NCBI RefSeq assembly: GCF_049243625.1
Contig: NZ_CP046975.1
Length of the DNA stretch: 32,000 nucleotides
Origin: Corynebacterium amycolatum
GTDB taxonomy: Bacteria; Actinomycetota; Actinomycetes; Mycobacteriales; Mycobacteriaceae
Direction: 5' to 3' (one strand)
A program made the position numbers and the translations under genes. Below the pieces are notes generated by a model. The model worked only from the letters and a program-made list of their open reading frames with translations. It was not told the origin of the DNA and did no database searches. Of this stretch, positions 4,812-32,000 are shown piece after piece; position 1 is the first letter of the stretch; each line of letters opens with the position of its first letter.

Positions 4812-4817
4812 AATCTG

Positions 4818-5199
4818 TGGAGCTGCCGAGAATTGAACTCGGGTCCACCGCCAACTCGCCAGGGCTTCTCCGTGCGCAGTTCGCACGATCGCCTCTACTC
4901 GACCCTTCGGCTCAGGCAAACATGTCCGAATGACGGGTCCAGCCGCAAGTAAGAAGATCCCCGATGAGCCTTACGGCACACCCATCGGGCGAGCCCTTTT
5001 AAGTCGATGCCAGGGTCCGGGCCAAAGGGCAAGCCCGGCCTGACAGACACGCTAGTCGCTTAATTAGGCAGCGAGAGCGTAGTCGCGCTGAGTGTTCTCG
5101 GCGCTTAATCAGTTGCTACGACGCTTAAACGGTGGTCTCTAGCCTGCACCGGCACGCTTCCCCTGGCTCACTGTACGGTGTCGAAACCATGTCAGCCCC
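4818..5199 (-). ncRNA. ssrA: tmRNA (transfer-messenger RNA)
   Basis: The minus strand starts GGGGCTGACATGGTTTCGACACC (5' end at 5199). It ends GGTGGACCCGAGTTCAATTCTCGGCAGCTCCA (tRNA-like T-arm and acceptor, 3' end at 4818; CCA not fully encoded). Internal tag frame 5102..5064 is GCC GAG AAC ACT CAG CGC GAC TAC GCT CTC GCT GCC TAA = AENTQRDYALAA*. It lies directly downstream of smpB. Confidence 0.95.
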
Positions 5200-5300: not shown

Positions 5301-5804
5301 CTACCCCTTGATGCCCTTTACACGGCGGCCCAGCGCACGAGTAGCTTCGCGCTCCTCCGTGCGGCGCTTGATGTCCTGGCGCTTGTCATAGTCCTGCTTA
5401 CCGCGGGCGAGTGCGAGCTCGACCTTCAAGCGGCCGTCGGTGAAATACAGCTTCAGGGGCACAAGCGTGTTGTTGCCATCGCGGACCTTGCCCCACAGGG
5501 TGTCAATCTCCTTGCGGTGCAACAACAGCTTGCGCGAGCGACGCGGTGAGTGATTAGTCCACGAACCGTAGGAGTACTCCGGGATATGCAGCCCGCGGAG
5601 CCACACTTCGCCGTCGTCGATGGTCGCGAAGGCGTCGTTAAGCGATGCTTTGCCCTCGCGCAGCGCCTTGACCTCAGTGCCCACGAGAACGACACCGCAT
5701 TCGTAGGTGTCCAGAATGTTGTAGTCATGGCGGGCACGACGATTGGTGGCCACCACCGCGTTGTTGGCGCTGACCTTTTCTTTCTTCGACTTCTTCTTGC
5801 CCAT
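5301..5804 (-). CDS. smpB: SsrA-binding protein SmpB
   Basis: 167-aa ORF: ...[40 protein letters not shown]...LLLHRKEI..., with a basic C-terminal tail. Canonical SmpB, adjacent to ssrA. Confidence 0.97.
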
Positions 5805-11932: not shown

Positions 11933-12838
11933 CTAGTCTCGTGAGACCTCAGCGAGGCGAACGAAATCGGCAATTTCGAGCTTCTCTCCTCGCTGCTTGG
12001 GGTCAATCCCCGCTGCCATAAGCGCTTCTTCGGCTGCGGCACCAGATCCGTAAATCCCCGATAGGGCCGCACGGAGGGTCTTGCGGCGTTGCGCAAAAGC
12101 AGCGTCGATAAGCGGGAAAAGGCGCGCGCGAAATTGCGGCGAAATCTCCCACGGAGCCTCGGGGGCATCGGCGGCATTGGAGTTCTCAGGAGCGTCGGAG
12201 CGGGCGTAGCAGTCAATGCGAACGAGCCCGGAATCAACCTTCGGGACCGGCCAAAAGACGTGCGGACCAATGGCACCGGCGCGACGCACTGTGCCGTAGT
12301 AGGCGGCCTTGACGCTGGGGACGCCGTAAATCTTGGAGCCCGGCTGAGCCGCCAGCCGGTCAGCGACCTCAGACTGCACCATCACGAGCACGCGGCGGAT
12401 GGTGGGGAGCTCGGCAAGCATGTGCAGCAGTACCGGTACCGAAACGTTGTACGGAAAGTTAGCCACCAGTGCATCCGGCGAGGTCTGAAAGTCCTCGCGG
12501 CTGACCTTCAGCGCATCTTTCTCAATGAGCTCGAGTTCACAGCCCTCGGCGCGCTCGGCGACTGTCTGGGGCAAACGCTCCGCCAACCGCGGATCGATTT
12601 CGACAGCCGCGGCACGGCCGCAGTGTTCGAGCAATCCCAGGGTCAGCGAGCCCAAGCCGGGACCGACCTCAACAGGGTAGGAATCCTCCGGCAAGTCCGC
12701 CGCAGCGACAATTCGACGCACGGTGTTGGCGTCGTGGACGAAGTTCTGCCCCAATTTCTTCGTCGGGACAATATCCAACTGCGCCGCCAGGTCACGTACT
12801 TCGACCGGCCCCAGGAAAGAAACTTCTGCTTTAGTCAC
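11933..12838 (-). CDS. rsmA: 16S rRNA (adenine1518/1519-N6)-dimethyltransferase
   Basis: 301 aa with [16 protein letters not shown] and SAM motif [10 protein letters not shown]. Located downstream of rpfB, as in other Mycobacteriales. Confidence 0.95.
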
Positions 12839-12902: not shown

Positions 12903-14075
<1,173 letters not shown>

Positions 14076-23411: not shown

Positions 23412-23825
23412 TTATCTGATGAATTGCCTGTCCAAGCTGAAACGGCCGGCTCCGAAAACGAAAATCATCACCAGCCCACCGATGAGTGACATCACGAGCT
23501 CCGCACCGTTGTCACGGATAAACAGACCATTGCCCAGGTGCATCGACCACCAGGCACCAATCATTTCAATGATGAAGACCATCGCCACCGTCGGGGCCAA
23601 GAGTCCCAGAATCAGCAACGCGCCTCCGACCAGTTCGACTAGAGCGACAACCCAGACCGTCAAGTGCGCCTGCGGGATATTCGCAGCGACAAAGTAACCG
23701 GTCGTCTTGTCAATACCGGTGATAAAAATCTTGTCCCAGCCATGGCAGATGAAGATAATTCCGAGTATTAGGCGGAGAATCACGAGCGCGATATCGCGCA
23801 TTACCGGTCGATCCATGAGGGACAT
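23412..23825 (-). CDS. DoxX family membrane protein
   Basis: In frame with track ORF 23412..23909, which I trimmed to ATG 23825 (MSLMDRPVMRD...) because the longer form includes the upstream terminator hairpin. LRLILGIIFICHGWDK... and four TM helices are typical of DoxX. Confidence 0.85.
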   Translation of the reverse strand: MSLMDRPVMRDIALVILRLILGIIFICHGWDKIFITGIDKTTGYFVAANIPQAHLTVWVVALVELVGGALLILGLLAPTVAMVFIIEMIGAWWSMHLGNGLFIRDNGAELVMSLIGGLVMIFVFGAGRFSLDRQFIR

Positions 23826-23892
23826 GCTACCCGACGGCACGGTCAAAGCACGGTAGCACTGCGGCAGCGAAAGGCCAGCGACTTTAACATGC

Positions 23893-23926
23893 AAAAAGGC
23901 TTCTCCCAACCCCTCGGGAGAAGCCT
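23893..23926 (-). terminator. Intrinsic terminator downstream of the acidic membrane protein gene
   Basis: Minus strand: A-GGCTTCTCCC-gaggggtt-GGGAGAAGCC-TTTTT. The stem is a perfect 10-11 bp (23916-23926 / 23897-23907) with a T-tract at 23893-23897. It lies 127 nt after the stop at 24053. Confidence 0.78.
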
Positions 23927-24052
23927 TCCGCCAAACACACCCGGTGTGTCATGTCTTAGGTAGTGACATCGTAACAGGCCGAGTTTCTAACAAAAAATCG
24001 CGCTGACGTGCTCAGACAACTTTAAGGTTGTTCTACGGCTCAGCTCACAGGA

Positions 24053-25324
24053 CTAGCTCACGCGAGCCTGCGGCATTTCGTCGTAATCGTCGTCATCAAA
24101 GCGGTAGTCAGTGTAGGCCAGATCTGCGAAATCCGGGTCCTCATCATCAAGCTCGACTACTACCGCGCCGGGACGGCGCAGTCGCTGTGGAATTCCCAGC
24201 TCATCATCCTCGCGGTTACGCACACCGAGGCGGGCCATCTTCATACGGCGAATTCGGCGAGCCCGCAGTTCCTGCTCTGCACGCACGGTGCGGCGCAGGT
24301 TGACCAGGTACAGGGTCATCAAGCCGACGCCGACCAGTGGAATCCACCAGGTCCAACCACCGGCGAAAGCAGCGATGATGACCGTGACTGCGATAAACGC
24401 TGCCAGCCCAGCAACAGAACGGCGGCGGCGAGCAAAGCGAGTCTCAGCGTACTGGGCATCCGAAATCGGATCGAACCCACCGCGACCACGGCGCTTCTCA
24501 GCGAACGCGTAATCATCTTCGGTCAAGGTGTCATCGACAGCGACTGCGTCATCGTTGGACTCGACAGCGTGGTCACTGTCGTTCTCGACGGTCGCATCGA
24601 GTTCTGCCTGCTCGTCTACGGTGTCTACTTCCTCTTCAGTCTCAGAGAGAGCCTCAGCGTCAACGTGCTCAGCGTCAGCCGCGGCACCGGAATCAGCGTC
24701 AGATTCAACAGCATCTTCGAACATCAAGTCATCGGCGTCGACGAATTGACGGCGAACGTCAACGCTCACATCGGAAGAAGACTCATCTGCACGAACCACG
24801 TCACCTTCGGCGGAGGCGACGGCGGAGTCAGATTCAGCATCCTCGTCATCAACGACAGCCTGTAGCGACTGGTCTGCAGATTCATCATCGGATACGTCCA
24901 TGTCAGAGCGGTCAGAAGACTCAGCAGTGGCTTCCTCGGTAGCGGAATCATCCGCCTGCGGGGCCTCCTCCTCTGCATCTGCTGCTTCCAGCTCGTAGAC
25001 GATATCGCCGTCGACGACGGCCGGGTCGGCCGCCTCGTCCACGGTGTCGTCGATAAGCACGTCGCTGACATCGAAGTCATCGTCGACCTGCGCGTCAACG
25101 GTTTCGAGAGAATCGTCGACTTCTTCGGCCACGCGCACGTCCGACTCCTTAAAAGACGGACGGCGGCGCGTCGTGGCCAGCTCCTCGCCACCACGATGCA
25201 GCACGCGGGTCTTACCTAGCGCATCGGATGTACGACGAATCGGCTTGCGCGTATTGACCACCAGCGGGGCCAGCACAAACAGCCACAGTACAACGATGAG
25301 TATCAGCAACAGAGAAGTTGACAT
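24053..25324 (-). CDS. glpR: Membrane protein with a giant acidic cytoplasmic loop; candidate gephyrin-like-protein receptor GlpR (Mtb Rv0996-type)
   Basis: 423 aa with AAGGAGA 8 nt upstream of the ATG. It has an N-terminal TM (aa 4-23), a 212-aa D/E/S/A/V-rich low-complexity region (aa 65-276), a TM hairpin (aa ~303-344) and an Arg-rich then acidic C-terminal tail. The assignment rests on position downstream of the MoeA-like and GNAT genes plus remembered C. glutamicum work, not on a search. Confidence 0.68.
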   Translation of the reverse strand: MSTSLLLILIVVLWLFVLAPLVVNTRKPIRRTSDALGKTRVLHRGGEELATTRRRPSFKESDVRVAEEVDDSLETVDAQVDDDFDVSDVLIDDTVDEAADPAVVDGDIVYELEAADAEEEAPQADDSATEEATAESSDRSDMDVSDDESADQSLQAVVDDEDAESDSAVASAEGDVVRADESSSDVSVDVRRQFVDADDLMFEDAVESDADSGAAADAEHVDAEALSETEEEVDTVDEQAELDATVENDSDHAVESNDDAVAVDDTLTEDDYAFAEKRRGRGGFDPISDAQYAETRFARRRRSVAGLAAFIAVTVIIAAFAGGWTWWIPLVGVGLMTLYLVNLRRTVRAEQELRARRIRRMKMARLGVRNREDDELGIPQRLRRPGAVVVELDDEDPDFADLAYTDYRFDDDDYDEMPQARVS

Positions 25325-25497
25325 ATTCTGCGTCTCCTTGCGACTTCGCCCGGGGTTTCGCCGTCTCTCCCCGGCCCAAATACACCGCCCACATGCCCTT
25401 CCACAGAGGCATTTACGAAGGCAGCCAGCGTATCTAGAGCGAACTCGCCCAATAGTAGAGTTGTCATCACCCTATCGGCGTGCGCTGCTCAGACTAC

Positions 25498-26130
25498 TCA
25501 GGCGCGCCGTTGCGGTGGGTATTTCTCCGCCTCTTCATATTGCGCACGACCACTCGCCACGATGAGGTCCACTGCACTGTCCTCCCCCACCCGCGCATAG
25601 GTCAGATGATCGCGCCACGCACCATCCATATGGAAGGCTTCCCGCGCCACGCCCTCATACTCGAACCCACAGTTTTCCAGCACGCGTATCGACGGGACAT
25701 TGCTGTCCAACACAGTCGCTTCAATTCGGTGGACGCCAACTTTCTTGGCATAATCCGACGCCAACGCCACTGCAGCAGTGGCGACTCCTCCACATGTAAA
25801 GCTGCTGCCGACCCAATAGCCAATCCAGGCGTGAGCGACGGGGAAAGGCGTAATGCCTCCGAGCGTGAGCATGCCGGCGAACTGGCCGTCTACCTCAATG
25901 GTGGAAACAAACATTTCCCCCGCCGCCTCTGAACGACGCCAACTGCGAAGGTTACGGCGGAAAACGGAAACCTTGTGGGCGTTATCCCAGTCGTCGTCGA
26001 GGGTTGGCTCCACAGGCCGCAAAATGGGCTCATCACGCAGCCGCAGTGCCCGCCATGTAGAGGCATCAGTTCGCTCTGGCACACGCAGGCGGACTCGGCC
26101 GCCACTGGTTATTAGACGGGAAGTACGCAC
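25498..26130 (-). CDS. GNAT family N-acetyltransferase, RimJ-like
   Basis: 210 aa with ...AHAWIGYWVGSSFTCGGVATAAVALASDYA...HRIEATVLDSNVPSIRVLENCGFEYEG, typical of the RimJ/RimL subgroup. It starts 30 nt downstream of the MoeA-like gene. Confidence 0.88.
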   Translation of the reverse strand: MRTSRLITSGGRVRLRVPERTDASTWRALRLRDEPILRPVEPTLDDDWDNAHKVSVFRRNLRSWRRSEAAGEMFVSTIEVDGQFAGMLTLGGITPFPVAHAWIGYWVGSSFTCGGVATAAVALASDYAKKVGVHRIEATVLDSNVPSIRVLENCGFEYEGVAREAFHMDGAWRDHLTYARVGEDSAVDLIVASGRAQYEEAEKYPPQRRA

Positions 26131-26160
26131 AGCAACGATACTCGCGGTAGTGGGGTGTGG

Positions 26161-27432
26161 TTAGGCTTGGCGCGCCATGAACAGCACGTCAACGACATCT
26201 CCAGGACGCACGTGTAGCACGTCTTCCGGAATCACGATGAGACTGTTGGCTTCCGACATGCCGGCCAGAAGGTGGGCTTGCGCACCGCCGGAACCTCCCA
26301 GCGGCTGCACCATGTATTCGCCGGTCTCACGGTCACGCATGAGCTGACCACGGATATACCCGCGACGCTTCTCCGCCGACTCGATCGGGCCGACAGCACG
26401 AGCTGTGACAGCGCGGCGGCGAGGATTGCGCTTACCCAGGGCCAGTCGAATGAGGGGACGAACCATAACCTCAAAAACGACCAATGCGCCGACCGGGTTC
26501 GACGGCAGCAGGAACGTTGGAATCTTGTCATCTCCCAGCAGACCAAAGCCCTGGACCGAACCAGGATGCATAGCGATGCGGGAAACATCAACCTCGCCCA
26601 ATTCAGCCAGCACACGGCGAATCTGCTCACCCGCGGCACCGCCGACAGCCCCCGTGATGACCAAGAGCTCACTGCGAATGAGCTGGCCCTCGATGATTTC
26701 CCGGATGCGACGGGGCTCACCGGTGGCAATACCCACTCGGTGCACCTCGGCCCCAGCATCGCGGCCGGCTGCTGCCAACGCGTAGGAGTTGACGTCGTAG
26801 ACCTGACCGAGGCCTGGCGTGCGGTCAACATCGACCAACTCATTACCAATGGAAATCACGGACATACGCGGCTTGGGGTGCACCAAAACCTTCGAACGCC
26901 CCACTGCTGCCAACAATCCAACCTGCGACGGCGAAATTACCGAGTCCAAAGACACCGCCACGTCACCCGGCTGCACGTCGTCGCCGACCTTCCGCACAAA
27001 GTCACCGGAGTAGACCGGATGGAGAACATTAACTCGACGGCCACCGCGGTCGGTCCAGTTTAGGGGCACGACAGCGTCGGCAAGCGATGGCAGCGGCGCA
27101 CCAGTTTGTACGCGCACGGCCTGCTTCGGCTGGAGACGCATCGGGTGGTGAGAGCCGGCTGTCACCTCACCGACAACAGGCAGCTCGACCTCGCGAAAAT
27201 CAACATCACTCTGACGCGCATCCGGAGGTAAAGAACCAGATTCGCCGACGATATCGACAGCGCGCACTGCATAACCATCGATTGCTGACTGCACGAATCC
27301 CGGCAACGGCTGCTCTGCGATGACATCTTCAGCGCACAGCATGCCGAGGGATTCCGAAATAGCAACGCGCACAGGATCAGGCATCACAGCGTGCGCGGTG
27401 ATTGCCGCCAACTGTTCTTCCACAGAACGCAT
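26161..27432 (-). CDS. glp: MoeA / gephyrin E-domain family protein; candidate gephyrin-like divisome protein Glp
   Basis: 423 aa with GAGGAAGG upstream of the ATG. The N-terminus reads ...LGMLCAEDVIAEQPLPGFVQSAIDGYAVR (MoeA signature xSAMDGYAVR). The central SIGNEL and C-terminal beta-barrel end ...VRPGDVVDVLF are present. MoeA-family membership is solid; the Glp role is inferred from context and motif divergence. Confidence 0.85.
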   Translation of the reverse strand: MRSVEEQLAAITAHAVMPDPVRVAISESLGMLCAEDVIAEQPLPGFVQSAIDGYAVRAVDIVGESGSLPPDARQSDVDFREVELPVVGEVTAGSHHPMRLQPKQAVRVQTGAPLPSLADAVVPLNWTDRGGRRVNVLHPVYSGDFVRKVGDDVQPGDVAVSLDSVISPSQVGLLAAVGRSKVLVHPKPRMSVISIGNELVDVDRTPGLGQVYDVNSYALAAAGRDAGAEVHRVGIATGEPRRIREIIEGQLIRSELLVITGAVGGAAGEQIRRVLAELGEVDVSRIAMHPGSVQGFGLLGDDKIPTFLLPSNPVGALVVFEVMVRPLIRLALGKRNPRRRAVTARAVGPIESAEKRRGYIRGQLMRDRETGEYMVQPLGGSGGAQAHLLAGMSEANSLIVIPEDVLHVRPGDVVDVLFMARQA

Positions 27433-27528
27433 GTTTTACCTTCCTCGGCACCAACCCGCGGTGCGCTTTATGGCTATTCAGCTTCTCAGTACAAGCCTCT
27501 AGATAAGTACAGCCTCTATAAAAAGGCT

Positions 27529-28503
27529 TTAAGCCTGTTCATCCTGCGCCAGACGCTGCTGCATATACTCGCGCAGCCCCTCGCCGTAGTCCGGATGCCT
27601 GAGTCCAAAGTCTACGCAAGCGCGAATGAAGCCACCAGGATTTCCCAGGTCATGGCGGAACCCCTTGTGGACGACCACATGAACCGGATGCCCCTCTTGA
27701 ATCAGCAGCTCAATTGCATCGGTGAGCTGGTATTCGCCGCCCTTACCGCGCGGGATGCGGCGCAGCGCATCGAAGATGGCACGATCGAGCAAGTAACGTC
27801 CGACTGCCACGAAGTTGGATGGAGCATCCGCAGGGTCCGGCTTTTCCACCATGCCCTTGACTCGCTTCACATCGTCCCAAGCATCAGCATCAGCCGCGTT
27901 CTCACCGAGCTCACCCGACTCCGCCGGGGTGGCGTCCTCAATATCGAAGACACCGTAGTTGTAGACCTCTTCGTGAGGAATTTCCAGCGCACATAGCACC
28001 GAGCCGCCAAAGCGCTCGCGCACTTCCGTCATGCGATCCATCACGCCCACTGGGAGCACGAGATCGTCGGGAAGCATGACAGCAACGCTGTCCTCATCGT
28101 CTTCGAGCAGCGGCTCTGCGACCAACACCGCATGCCCCAGGCCCAGCGGTCGATCTTGGACAACGGATTCCACGCGAATGACCTCGGTGGCGCGGCGTAC
28201 CTTCGCTGCAATTTTGTCCTTGCCACGCTCGGCGAGAGTCTGCTCAAGATCCGGGCGTGGGTCGAAGTGCCCCAGCACGCCATCCTTACTCGGCGCCGTG
28301 ACAATAGCCAGGCGTTGCGCACCAGTGGCGGCGGCCTCTTCAGCAATCATCTCGATGCCCGGCGTATCAACCACGGGCAGCAATTCTTTCGGCACTGTCT
28401 TGGTGGCAGGCAAGAATCGCGTACCCATGCCCGCGGCAGGAACGATGACAGTTCGAACCGGAGTAGTCATGTCCGAACCAGACTCTTTAGACGATGAGAC
28501 CAT
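27529..28503 (-). CDS. galU: UTP--glucose-1-phosphate uridylyltransferase
   Basis: 324 aa with VIVPAAGMGTRFLPATKTVPKELLPVVD. Alternative start at ATG 28470 (MTTPVRT). Confidence 0.93.
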   Translation of the reverse strand: MVSSSKESGSDMTTPVRTVIVPAAGMGTRFLPATKTVPKELLPVVDTPGIEMIAEEAAATGAQRLAIVTAPSKDGVLGHFDPRPDLEQTLAERGKDKIAAKVRRATEVIRVESVVQDRPLGLGHAVLVAEPLLEDDEDSVAVMLPDDLVLPVGVMDRMTEVRERFGGSVLCALEIPHEEVYNYGVFDIEDATPAESGELGENAADADAWDDVKRVKGMVEKPDPADAPSNFVAVGRYLLDRAIFDALRRIPRGKGGEYQLTDAIELLIQEGHPVHVVVHKGFRHDLGNPGGFIRACVDFGLRHPDYGEGLREYMQQRLAQDEQA

Positions 28504-30057: not shown

Positions 30058-30213
30058 GGCTCGGCAATTCAAAATTACGATTAGAACTAAGAAGAGTGAC
30101 ACTGCCGGACAGCGCACTTCCCTGTTTCTGAAATCGTATGGGCCTGCATTGAGCTACGCGATGACTCACAGGTCTCGTTTGGTTTGTTCCGTTTCTACAG
30201 AAGGAAATTTCCT

Positions 30214-30630
30214 ATGCTTAAGGGCTTTAAAGAGTTCATCATGCGCGGCAACGTCATCGACCTGGCGGTCGGTGTTGTCATCGGTGCTGCGTTCACCGCA
30301 ATCGTCACTGCTTTCACCGAAAGCCTGCTCGAGCCGCTGCTGAACACCATCGGTGGCGCTGAGGTTACTGGCCTTGGCTTCGAAATCATCAGCGGCAACC
30401 CGTCGACCTACCTTGACTTTGCAGCTGTCATCACCGCAGTAATCAACTTCCTGCTGGTCGCAGCGGTTGTCTACTTCGTCATCGTTGCTCCGATGAACAA
30501 GTTCAACTCGATGCGTGAGGCTCGCCTGGAGACCTCCGCTGAGCCGGAGGTCACCGAGGCTGACCTGCTGACCGAGATTCGTGACCTGCTGGCAGAACAG
30601 AACGGCAAGCCGAAGTCGGAACTGAACTAG
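30214..30630 (+). CDS. mscL: Large-conductance mechanosensitive channel
   Basis: In frame with track ORF 30184..30630, which I trimmed to ATG 30214 (AGAAGGAAA upstream). MLKGFKEFIMRGNVIDLAVGVVIGAAFTAIVTAF is the canonical MscL N-terminus. Confidence 0.95.
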   Translation: MLKGFKEFIMRGNVIDLAVGVVIGAAFTAIVTAFTESLLEPLLNTIGGAEVTGLGFEIISGNPSTYLDFAAVITAVINFLLVAAVVYFVIVAPMNKFNSMREARLETSAEPEVTEADLLTEIRDLLAEQNGKPKSELN

Positions 30631-30910: not shown

Positions 30911-31480
30911 CTAGACGCTCCAGCGGCAGAGATCATCAAGCACATGAGAGACCAGCGGGAGGATTGTCGCCATGCCATCGCGCACTGCAGCGCGCGACTC
31001 CGCGAGATTGATAATCACCGTCTGACCGGACACACCAGCCAACCCGCGTGACAGCCCCGCATCCAAGGCGCCGGCTCCCATACCGGAGTTACGAATAGCC
31101 TGCTCAATGCCCTGCAGTCGTACATCGAGAACTTTGCGAGTGGCATCCGGGGTCTTCGCACGAGGCCCAACGCCAACGCCTCCCACCGTGACGACCAAAT
31201 CCGCGCCACCAACAACAGCGGTATCGAGCGCCTTCCGGATCTCACGCTTCACTGCACCCGTACTGACCACAGCATCGACCGAGTAGCCGTCTTCTTCCAA
31301 CAGCTCAACCATGAGCGAAGCCGCAGCATCCGGGTTCTCGAAATGATCGCCCACGAGGACTACAAACGCATTTCGGACCTGGCCGTCGTCGTTGATAAGA
31401 CGCTCCATCTCAGCGAGGTTAACGTCACTTGGCTCAGTACTCACAGTTTCACTCATCTGCTCTAACTCGCTTTCTCCCAC
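30911..31480 (-). CDS. moaB: MoaB/MogA-family (gephyrin G-domain-like) protein
   Basis: 189 aa with ...DLVVTVGGVGVGPRAKTPDATRKVLD...GQTVIINLAESRAAV, which aligns by eye to the MogA/MoaB core LVLTTGGTGPARRDVTPDAT...LILNLPGQPKS. The start is uncertain (internal Met codons at aa 9 and 25). Confidence 0.85.
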   Translation of the reverse strand: MGESELEQMSETVSTEPSDVNLAEMERLINDDGQVRNAFVVLVGDHFENPDAAASLMVELLEEDGYSVDAVVSTGAVKREIRKALDTAVVGGADLVVTVGGVGVGPRAKTPDATRKVLDVRLQGIEQAIRNSGMGAGALDAGLSRGLAGVSGQTVIINLAESRAAVRDGMATILPLVSHVLDDLCRWSV

Positions 31481-31550: not shown

Positions 31551-32000
31551 TCAATCCTGGGCTTCTGCCAAGGTGACATCGACTGTTCGCTCGTTGCCGC
31601 CTCGCTCATCTGTAACTGTAAGTGTGACAGAATCCCCGATCCGATGCGAGCGGATAGCCGCAATTAGTGCAACGCCGTTGTCAAGTGTGCGGTCATCAAC
31701 CTTGGTAATCAGGTCACCGTCTTTCAGTCCCGCTTTGTCAGCTGGGCCGCCTGGCGTTACCTCCCGCACCAGTGCACCACGTGCAATCGGACGCGAATCA
31801 ATCTGGGCACCAATGACAGGCATCCGGGCCTTACCGGAATCAATCAGGTCTTCCGCTATGCGACGAGCCTGATTAACCGGAATAGCGAAACCAAGGCCAA
31901 TGCTGCCCGCTTGCTCCGATCCCGCACTGTTAGAGGCAATCACGCTGGGCACACCGATAAGGTTGCCTTCCATATCCACTAGCGCTCCACCGGAGTTACC
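31551..32000 (-). CDS. Trypsin-like serine protease with PDZ domain (HtrA/PepD-like), 3' part; N-terminus beyond the right edge
   Basis: The frame stays open to position 32000. The first visible codons are GNSGGALVDMEGN (catalytic Ser motif GNSGG). The PDZ segment GALVREVTPGGPADKAGLKDGDLITKVDD follows. The track lists only 31551..31979 from an internal GTG. Confidence 0.9.
   Translation of the reverse strand, partial: GNSGGALVDMEGNLIGVPSVIASNSAGSEQAGSIGLGFAIPVNQARRIAEDLIDSGKARMPVIGAQIDSRPIARGALVREVTPGGPADKAGLKDGDLITKVDDRTLDNGVALIAAIRSHRIGDSVTLTVTDERGGNERTVDVTLAEAQD

Follow-up and report, generated by a model that had tools for sequence, protein, structure and literature searches.

A galU-glp-GNAT-glpR locus of Corynebacterium amycolatum that very probably encodes orthologues of the divisome proteins Glp and GlpR

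Corynebacterium amycolatum is a skin commensal and opportunist that is not known to have mycolic acids. We analysed 32,000 nucleotides of its genome (contig NZ_CP046975.1 of assembly GCF_049243625.1), a stretch referred to below as the window, for a pair of genes that encode a MoeA-like protein and a membrane protein, each of 423 residues. The window very probably encodes orthologues of the C. glutamicum divisome proteins Glp (Cgl0883) and GlpR (Cgl0885) in their standard galU-glp-GNAT-glpR setting. An earlier note, made from the DNA letters, had proposed that this system is present, and the proposal is borne out here by curated profile hidden Markov models (HMMs), by 66% identity to C. glutamicum Glp, by the FtsZ-binding loop and the hinges of the protein, by the homology of GlpR and by the gene order. 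The 2023 report on C. glutamicum Glp and GlpR to which the note referred is that of Martinez et al. 2023 (PMC10522489), and its content is as stated there. The four co-directional genes on the minus strand were found as open reading frames (ORFs) at exactly the coordinates given in the note, separated by gaps of 96, 30 and 173 nucleotides. The features of the locus, in the order of transcription, are as follows.

27529-28503, minus strand: galU, 324 residues, a putative UTP-glucose-1-phosphate uridylyltransferase of the GalU type
26161-27432, minus strand: glp, 423 residues, a gephyrin-like divisome protein, in all probability a repurposed MoeA
25498-26130, minus strand: gene for a GNAT-family N-acetyltransferase of 210 residues, between glp and glpR
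24053-25324, minus strand: glpR (SepX/GlpR family), 423 residues, very probably the membrane receptor for Glp
23893-23927, minus strand: intrinsic terminator with a 12-bp stem and a U-run, closing the glpR transcript

The identity of the MoeA-like protein was examined by profile and structure searches. It has the architecture of MoeA, with the Pfam domains MoeA_N, MoCF_biosynth and MoeA_C at residues 3-178, 192-329 and 344-417, respectively. It passed the NCBI curated model for Glp, NF045515 (Glp_gephyrin), with 563.6 bits against a cutoff of 475, and stayed below the cutoffs of the catalytic actinobacterial model NF050098 (MoeA_actino; 312 bits, cutoff 560) and of PRK10680 (238 bits, cutoff 440). 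The best match in the PDB was C. glutamicum Glp (8BVE/8BVF) with 592 bits and an E value of 6e-177; the next-best MoeA structure scored 158 bits. The 66% identity was obtained against this crystallised protein, and the catalytic paralogues MoeA1 and MoeA3 of C. glutamicum are 25-27% identical to C. glutamicum Glp (PMC10522489). Judged from the profile scores and the identity, the MoeA-like protein is in the Glp clade and not in the clade of catalytic MoeA. Its sequence is 100% identical to that of C. amycolatum SK46, where the neighbouring genes are 91-99% identical, and exactly the same Glp sequence is present on 586 contigs.

The signatures reported to discriminate Glp are an FtsZ-binding loop (M361-L370) with a hydrophobic pocket and two Pro-rich hinges (PMC10522489). 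In C. glutamicum the loop is delimited by M361 and Y369, and the pocket residues are V338, L343, L360 and F414 (PMC10522489). The corresponding elements of the window Glp are these.

26311-26343, minus strand: predicted beta-hairpin loop binding the FtsZ C-terminal peptide (LMRDRETGEYM, residues 364-374), equivalent to C. glutamicum L360-L370
27373-27381, minus strand: Pro-rich hinge 1 (P-D-P, residues 18-20; domains III/I), with P18 and P20 invariant
26869-26877, minus strand: Pro-rich hinge 2 (P-K-P, residues 186-188; domains I/III), with P186 and P188 invariant

Within the loop, the L, M, R, D, E, T and Y are identical to those of C. glutamicum, and L370 is replaced by M374. The FtsZ contacts V342, L364, M365, R366, Y373 and F418 are the equivalents of C. 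glutamicum V338, L360, M361, R362, Y369 and F414, respectively, and V347 in the pocket is a conservative change of L343. E. coli MoeA has Q, L and E at the same positions. When 15 diverse Glp sequences were compared, L364, R366, D367, Y373 and F418 were invariant. Hinge 1 reads MPDPV in the window Glp and APEPV in 8BVE, and hinge 2 reads HPKPR in the window Glp, YPRPR in 8BVE and IRKVR in E. coli MoeA; the PxP at both hinges was invariant across 15-21 Glp sequences. Compared with C. glutamicum Glp, with which it shares the four-domain MoeA fold family and the gene neighbourhood, the window Glp has FtsZ contacts and hinges that are identical or conservatively replaced. It differs in an insert in domain II that is 4 residues longer (about residues 66-72) and in the A that corresponds to S371.

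The membrane protein encoded two genes downstream passed the NCBIfam model NF045516 (SepX_GlpR_1) with 278.4 bits against a cutoff of 160. Other SepX_GlpR sub-models were also matched, at 71 bits or less, and the GlpR-type sub-model was the best. For a direct comparison we used the GlpR of a C. glutamicum-type locus (L017), in which Glp is 99% identical to 8BVE and GlpR has 340 residues, the published length. The window GlpR showed 55% identity to this protein over 140 residues (264-403; E 7e-37); the N-terminal transmembrane (TM) helix and the basic segment matched weakly, and the acidic middle could not be aligned. The comparison of both 423-residue proteins with Glp and GlpR of C. glutamicum, which the earlier note had called for, returned homology for each, with the GlpR of the C. 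glutamicum-type locus as the reference for the membrane protein. The local copy of Pfam gave no match for GlpR. Since its homologues are annotated with Pfam PF28211 ('GlpR') in precomputed records, this family is probably newer than that copy.

Hydropathy analysis of GlpR gave peaks at residues 1-26 and 301-343. Clusters of Arg and Lys with net charges of +7, +5 and +8 lie at residues 25-60, 273-302 and 345-385, respectively, and the 212-residue segment between the first two (61-272) has a net charge of -76. The hydropathy and charge analysis reproduces the topology that had been read from the sequence before, namely an N-terminal TM helix, a TM hairpin and an acidic loop of 212 residues with basic borders. 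A model of GlpR alone made by AlphaFold2 (AF2) contained helices at residues 2-23, with a predicted local distance difference test (pLDDT) score of ~80, and at residues 286-321 and 327-366 (pLDDT 68-83). Most of the residues in 94-264 and in 387-423 had a pLDDT below 50. The predicted parts of GlpR, including its two intrinsically disordered regions (IDRs), are given below.

25253-25315, minus strand: TM1 (about residues 4-24), from hydropathy and the AF2 helix at 2-23
24419-25252, minus strand: IDR1 (residues 25-302), predicted to be cytoplasmic, acidic with basic ends; net charge -64, isoelectric point (pI) 4.05, pLDDT 31-56 and mostly coil
24293-24418, minus strand: TM2-TM3 hairpin (residues 303-344), its short turn reading GGWTWW, from hydropathy and AF2
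24056-24292, minus strand: IDR2 (residues 345-423), with a basic helix next to the membrane and an acidic tail farther out, from charge analysis
24119-24184, minus strand: conserved motif RLRRPGAVVVELDDEDPDFADL within IDR2 (residues 381-402), a candidate docking element for a partner

As far out as the C. glutamicum type, no change is seen in the turn residues G322, G323, W324 and W326. In IDR2, residues 345-385 have a net charge of +8 and residues 386-423 of -12, for an overall net charge of -4 and a pI of 4.8. The motif RLRRPGAVVVELDDEDPDFADL hardly varies between C. amycolatum and the C. glutamicum type, and it is recognisable in Rhodococcoides and in a metagenome-assembled genome (MAG) of the Mycobacteriaceae; in the AF2 model of GlpR it is coil with a pLDDT of ~50. 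By these sequence features GlpR is a member of the SepX/GlpR family with a predicted N-out arrangement of TM1, a long acidic cytoplasmic IDR1, the TM hairpin and a cytoplasmic IDR2. Of the traits published for GlpR, we found the three TM helices, the two cytoplasmic disordered regions and the acidic IDR1. The basic IDR2 of opposite charge is lacking in the window GlpR. We also explored the possibility that the tail motif mimics the C-terminal peptide of FtsZ (DDLDVPSFLQ). When the P-x-F elements of the two were aligned, the hydrophobic anchors were out of register, and this candidate was rejected.

The arrangement of the genes is conserved. The order GalU-Glp-GNAT-GlpR was found in 15 of the 16 genome loci and in the C. 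glutamicum-type locus. In metagenome loci with a Glp of 61-100% identity, the GNAT and GlpR genes follow glp in all 49 loci that could be assessed, and GalU is directly upstream of glp in all 66 that could be assessed for it. The Corynebacterium genome loci have the composition SAF-MTHFS (divergent) / GalU-Glp-GNAT-GlpR-DoxX-anti-sigma, and the four-gene core extends to Rhodococcoides and to the Mycobacteriaceae MAG (L014). The single exception is the locus of Corynebacterium sp. TAE3-ERU12 (L009; 8249-8400), where glpR comes directly after glp and mscL is missing too. In Mycobacterium tuberculosis, Rv0993 is galU, Rv0994 is moeA1 and Rv0996 is the gene of the membrane protein. The same gene order in the mycobacterial Rv0993-Rv0996 is backed by the L014 locus and by the naming of Rv0995 as RimJ (PMC12305045).

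The work on C. glutamicum provides a mechanism for the pair. There the Glp homodimer is open and takes up the FtsZ C-terminal peptide in its central groove with a dissociation constant (Kd) of about 5 μM, GlpR binds Glp at an overlapping site with a Kd of about 5 nM, and GlpR binds the N-terminal domain of Wag31 with a Kd of about 15-43 μM (PMC10522489). By analogy, an open dimer of C. amycolatum Glp would bind the conserved C-terminal peptide of FtsZ in its central groove, which would bring Glp to mid-cell early. GlpR would bind Glp at the overlapping site with nanomolar affinity and so form its membrane tether. The resulting chain of FtsZ, Glp, GlpR and Wag31 would couple the septal divisome to the assembly of the future polar elongasome.

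Several points weigh against the assignment of the pair as Glp and GlpR or limit what can be drawn from it. The function of both proteins in C. amycolatum would be transferred by orthology, and the genes for FtsZ and Wag31 lie outside the 32-kb window. An AF2 model of Glp and GlpR as a concatenate, in which IDR1 served as the natural linker, had a mean pLDDT of 43.8 and was uninterpretable for docking; domains I and II of Glp were at ~30 and the GlpR tail at ~26-31. IDR2 is net acidic in the window GlpR, whereas that of the C. glutamicum type is basic, with a pI of about 11 (computed 11.1). Together with an IDR1 that is longer by ~90 residues, this means that the interactions mediated by the IDRs may differ quantitatively from those in C. 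glutamicum. Some residual catalysis by Glp could also persist, as many of the MoeA active-site residues are kept.

In an alignment to E. coli MoeA, the equivalents of D59, T100, R137, D142, E188, P298, P301 and R350 are kept in the window Glp (8 of the 15 positions checked), and the substitutions are D228 to G, D259 to E, K279 to H, K282 to S and P283 to V. The KPGKP of E. coli reads HPGSV. Both the score expected of the catalytic clade and the set formed by D228, D259, K279 and KPGKP are lacking. C. glutamicum Glp has the same substitutions at D228, K279, K282 and P283; at the equivalent of D259 it has an A, where the window Glp has an E. Catalytic MoeA (E. coli MoeA, 1G8L; NF050098) and the gephyrin E domain share the domain architecture and the dimeric fold family with the window Glp, in which many substrate-site residues are kept; what sets the window Glp apart from catalytic MoeA is that it has the PxP hinges and the FtsZ-binding hairpin and is without the KPGKP motif and D228. 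A 2025 analysis from the same laboratory as the Glp/GlpR work found that in Glp homologues the active site is poorly conserved and its geometry altered, concluded that catalysis is lost, favoured repurposing over moonlighting and noted that Glp-bearing bacteria keep other MoeA copies (PMC11733289). The substitution of several active-site positions in the window Glp agrees with this loss of catalysis, and Glp has probably lost its molybdenum-insertase activity.

It might still be argued that Glp is a plain, working molybdopterin molybdotransferase of molybdenum cofactor (Moco) biosynthesis and that its adjacency to a membrane protein is meaningless, since it has the full MoeA domain architecture, keeps the eight active-site positions and has a MoaB/MogA-like gene 3.5 kb away. 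We consider this exceedingly improbable. The protein scores below the MoeA_actino cutoff and above that of Glp, its KPGKP has degenerated and its D228 is a G, and the loop and hinges that discriminate Glp from MoeA are present. Moreover, it strictly co-occurs with GlpR, the MoaB-like gene is part of an htrA-mscL block and does not belong with glp, and the published analysis finds that catalysis is lost (PMC11733289). The same eight residues would suit a true moonlighter that, like animal gephyrin, combines molybdenum insertion with a scaffolding role in the divisome, and the 2023 paper still speaks of a 'putative active site' (PMC10522489). Against this stand the substitutions at D228, D259, K279, K282 and P283, the preference for repurposing that rests on low active-site conservation and altered geometry, and the retention of other MoeA copies in Glp-bearing bacteria (PMC11733289). 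We find such a dual role very unlikely and favour the reading that Glp is a repurposed MoeA.

The relative from which another role for GlpR could be argued is SepX of Streptomyces venezuelae (vnz_14865; Bush et al. 2022, PMC8748795). It is in the same NCBI family, has three TM segments and two cytoplasmic regions that are mostly disordered and, like GlpR, is a divisome component, co-localising with FtsZ; it was characterised via its interaction with DynB, cross-wall formation and sporulation (PMC8748795). Sequence similarity in the SepX/GlpR family is very low outside the membrane segments. If GlpR acted mainly like SepX, it would stabilise the Z-ring via self-interaction and the dynamin-like DynB and would not mainly be the receptor of Glp and the link to Wag31. 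Such a role would be in keeping with the merger of SepX and GlpR into one family by NCBI, with the matches to other SepX_GlpR sub-models, with the architecture of SepX and its interaction with DynB (PMC8748795), and with the little phenotype of a glpR deletion in C. glutamicum (PMC10522489). However, the GlpR-type sub-model scores far better than the others (278 versus 71 bits at most), glp lies two genes from glpR in every locus examined (next to it in the L009 locus), and a nanomolar Glp-GlpR complex has been measured in a congener (PMC10522489). It is quite unlikely that the SepX-type role is the main one; the two roles are, besides, not mutually exclusive. We propose that the window GlpR serves mainly as the membrane receptor of Glp.

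The disordered regions of the GlpR orthologues differ from the published description. C. glutamicum GlpR has an IDR1 at residues 27-218 with a pI of about 4 and an IDR2 at residues 263-340 with a pI of 10.9 (PMC10522489). The window GlpR shares with this protein (Cgl0885) the three TM helices in N-out orientation, the acidic IDR1, an RRGRG box before the hairpin, the GGWxW turn, the basic helix after the TM segments, the invariant motif RLRRPGAVVxELDDExPDF and a C-terminus ending in RVS. It is longer, with 423 residues versus 340, and its IDR1 has ~275 residues (net -64 to -67) versus ~190 (net -40). The net acidity of its IDR2 stems from an Asp-rich distal tail that follows the conserved basic helix. 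IDR2 is net acidic (pI 4.7-5.4) in the window GlpR and in the 11 other orthologues extracted from the Corynebacterium lineage, and it is near-neutral in two Rhodococcoides orthologues. Among the orthologues, a basic IDR2 with a pI of about 11 was seen only in the C. glutamicum-type protein, and the membrane-proximal helix is consistently basic. Judged from these sequences, a basic IDR2 looks like a trait of C. glutamicum and not one that defines the family, and the description of GlpR as having oppositely charged IDRs does not appear to generalise beyond C. glutamicum.

IDR1 ranges among the orthologues from ~100 near-neutral residues in Rhodococcoides to more than 300 residues. It is much shorter in the Mycobacteriaceae and Rhodococcoides orthologues than in the window GlpR, and near-neutral in those from Rhodococcoides. 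The elements conserved in GlpR are TM1 and the basic stretch that follows it, an LTExDxAFAxxRRGRG box, the GGWxW turn, the basic helix and the tail motif; two rows of the core alignment (L004 and L011) were wrong-frame ORFs and were left out. The GlpR of C. amycolatum varies in length (408, 410, 423, 425 and 430 residues), with the indels confined to the acidic IDR1. These intraspecific indels suggest that IDR1 is constrained in composition rather than in sequence. A search for tandem repeats in the coding region of the acidic IDR1 returned just a trivial 9-nt repeat (2.2 copies) in the C-terminal Asp-rich tail.

The product of the gene between glp and glpR matched the Pfam families Acetyltransf_3, Acetyltransf_1 and Acetyltransf_4, and its best PDB matches were 6C30/6C32 ('GNAT family acetyltransferase') with 144 bits. 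It had been labelled RimJ-like in the earlier note. With 41 bits against the RimJ model PRK10809 (cutoff 190), it falls short of the RimJ equivalog; RimJ identity is not demonstrable, and a generic GNAT of the Acetyltransf_3 type is the appropriate description. The mycobacterial orthologue Rv0995 is named RimJ (PMC12305045), a name that rests on homology alone. The GNAT gene is the next gene after glp in all 49 assessable metagenome loci, in all but one of the genome loci (15/16; the exception is L009) and in the C. glutamicum-type locus, at a spacing from glp of a few to a few tens of nucleotides across loci. The GNAT is not mentioned in the Glp/GlpR paper (PMC10522489), and none of the papers cited here gives it a role in division. 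Whether it is a third functional component of the module, and relatedly whether the tail motif of GlpR, and not the charge of IDR2, is the element that docks to Glp, are ideas that these papers leave unaddressed; we regard them as unlikely. The GalU-type protein matched the Pfam family NTP_transferase and, over its full length, C. glutamicum GalU (2PA4; 404 bits, E 3e-120), its best PDB match; it scored 233 bits against TIGR01099 (cutoff 327). It is the conserved neighbour upstream and probably no functional part of the Glp/GlpR pair.

The statement in the earlier note that no Moco genes flank the MoeA-like gene holds for its immediate neighbours and fails a little farther out. A MoCF_biosynth gene of the MoaB/MogA-like type (30911-31480, minus strand) lies ~3.5 kb and four genes upstream of glp, and it is the only other gene of a Moco family in the window. 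It stands between the gene for an HtrA-type protease (31551-31979, minus strand, with its 3' end at the window edge) and mscL (30184-30630, plus strand). This htrA-moaB-mscL block is kept in most related loci, among them the C. glutamicum-type locus, and the link of the MoaB-like gene appears to be with htrA and not with glp. We considered whether the MoaB/MogA-like protein and Glp could form a 'split gephyrin'. Given the conserved block and the four intervening genes on mixed strands, we see no specific link between the two.

The terminator after the membrane-protein gene, described in the earlier note as strong, was confirmed by direct reading and by folding. It consists of a perfect, G+C-rich stem of 12 bp (AAGGCUUCUCCC/GGGAGAAGCCUU) followed by a U-run (about 23893-23927). 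It folds with a predicted -28.6 kcal/mol (z = -5.2), which was matched by 0 of 200 shuffled sequences. A simple pattern-based scan for terminators did not list it; direct reading and folding show it to be real. A palindrome of 15 nucleotides, ACACACCGGGTGTGT, is found at ~23935-23949 between the glpR stop codon and the terminator; a protein might bind there, or the terminator structure might extend into it. The ORF of the DoxX family at 23412-23909 (minus strand) is listed with a TTG start that falls within the 3' arm of this terminator, and a start at the ATG near 23825 (MSLMDRP...) is more plausible.

Upstream of the start codons of glp and glpR, direct reading found GAGGAAGG and AAGGAGA, respectively. 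Going solely by the spacing, glp and the GNAT gene, 30 nt apart, probably share a transcript, and glpR, behind a gap of 173 nt, is probably transcribed from a promoter of its own. A weak hairpin of 5 bp with a T-run (27524-27536, minus strand) overlaps the stop codon of galU. It could cause partial termination between galU and glp, which would suggest that the 96-nt gap holds a separate promoter for glp.

RefSeq names exactly these sequences 'molybdotransferase-like divisome protein Glp' and 'divisome protein SepX/GlpR'. In UniRef and in older GenBank records the names are 'Molybdopterin molybdenumtransferase', 'Transmembrane protein' and 'hypothetical protein'. The expectation in the earlier note that standard pipelines would call the pair a molybdopterin molybdenumtransferase and a hypothetical protein is out of date, as NF045515, NF045516 and PF28211 exist and the RefSeq names are correct. 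Nor is the system hidden behind a Moco-type annotation, as had been thought, with RefSeq already labelling the two proteins Glp and SepX/GlpR. The published record comprises SepX in 2022 (PMC8748795), Glp and GlpR in 2023 (PMC10522489) and the repurposing of MoeA in 2025 (PMC11733289). The pair in the window is an ordinary member of this described system; its identification is correct and adds nothing new. The system is of importance as a link between the FtsZ divisome and the Wag31 polar elongasome in Corynebacteriales, as a bacterial case of a MoeA repurposed as a scaffold in parallel to gephyrin, and as a proposed anti-mycobacterial target. To this the window contributes an orthologue in C. 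amycolatum.

Elsewhere in the window, a tmRNA gene (4815-5199, minus strand; 137 bits in Rfam; tag peptide AENTQRDYALAA) adjoins smpB (5301-5804, minus strand), the two making up an ordinary trans-translation pair. An ORF of 724 residues on the plus strand (4-2178) had no family matches and looks like the antisense shadow of a gene on the minus strand. This gene, the real one at the start of the window, is open from 2613 to position 1 and encodes at least 871 residues with a multi-TM N-terminus. A gene for an RpfB-type resuscitation-promoting factor (DUF348-G5-transglycosylase; 12903-14054, minus strand) lies upstream of that for a KsgA-type rRNA dimethylase (11933-12838, minus strand), and this arrangement is an ordinary conserved synteny of actinobacteria.

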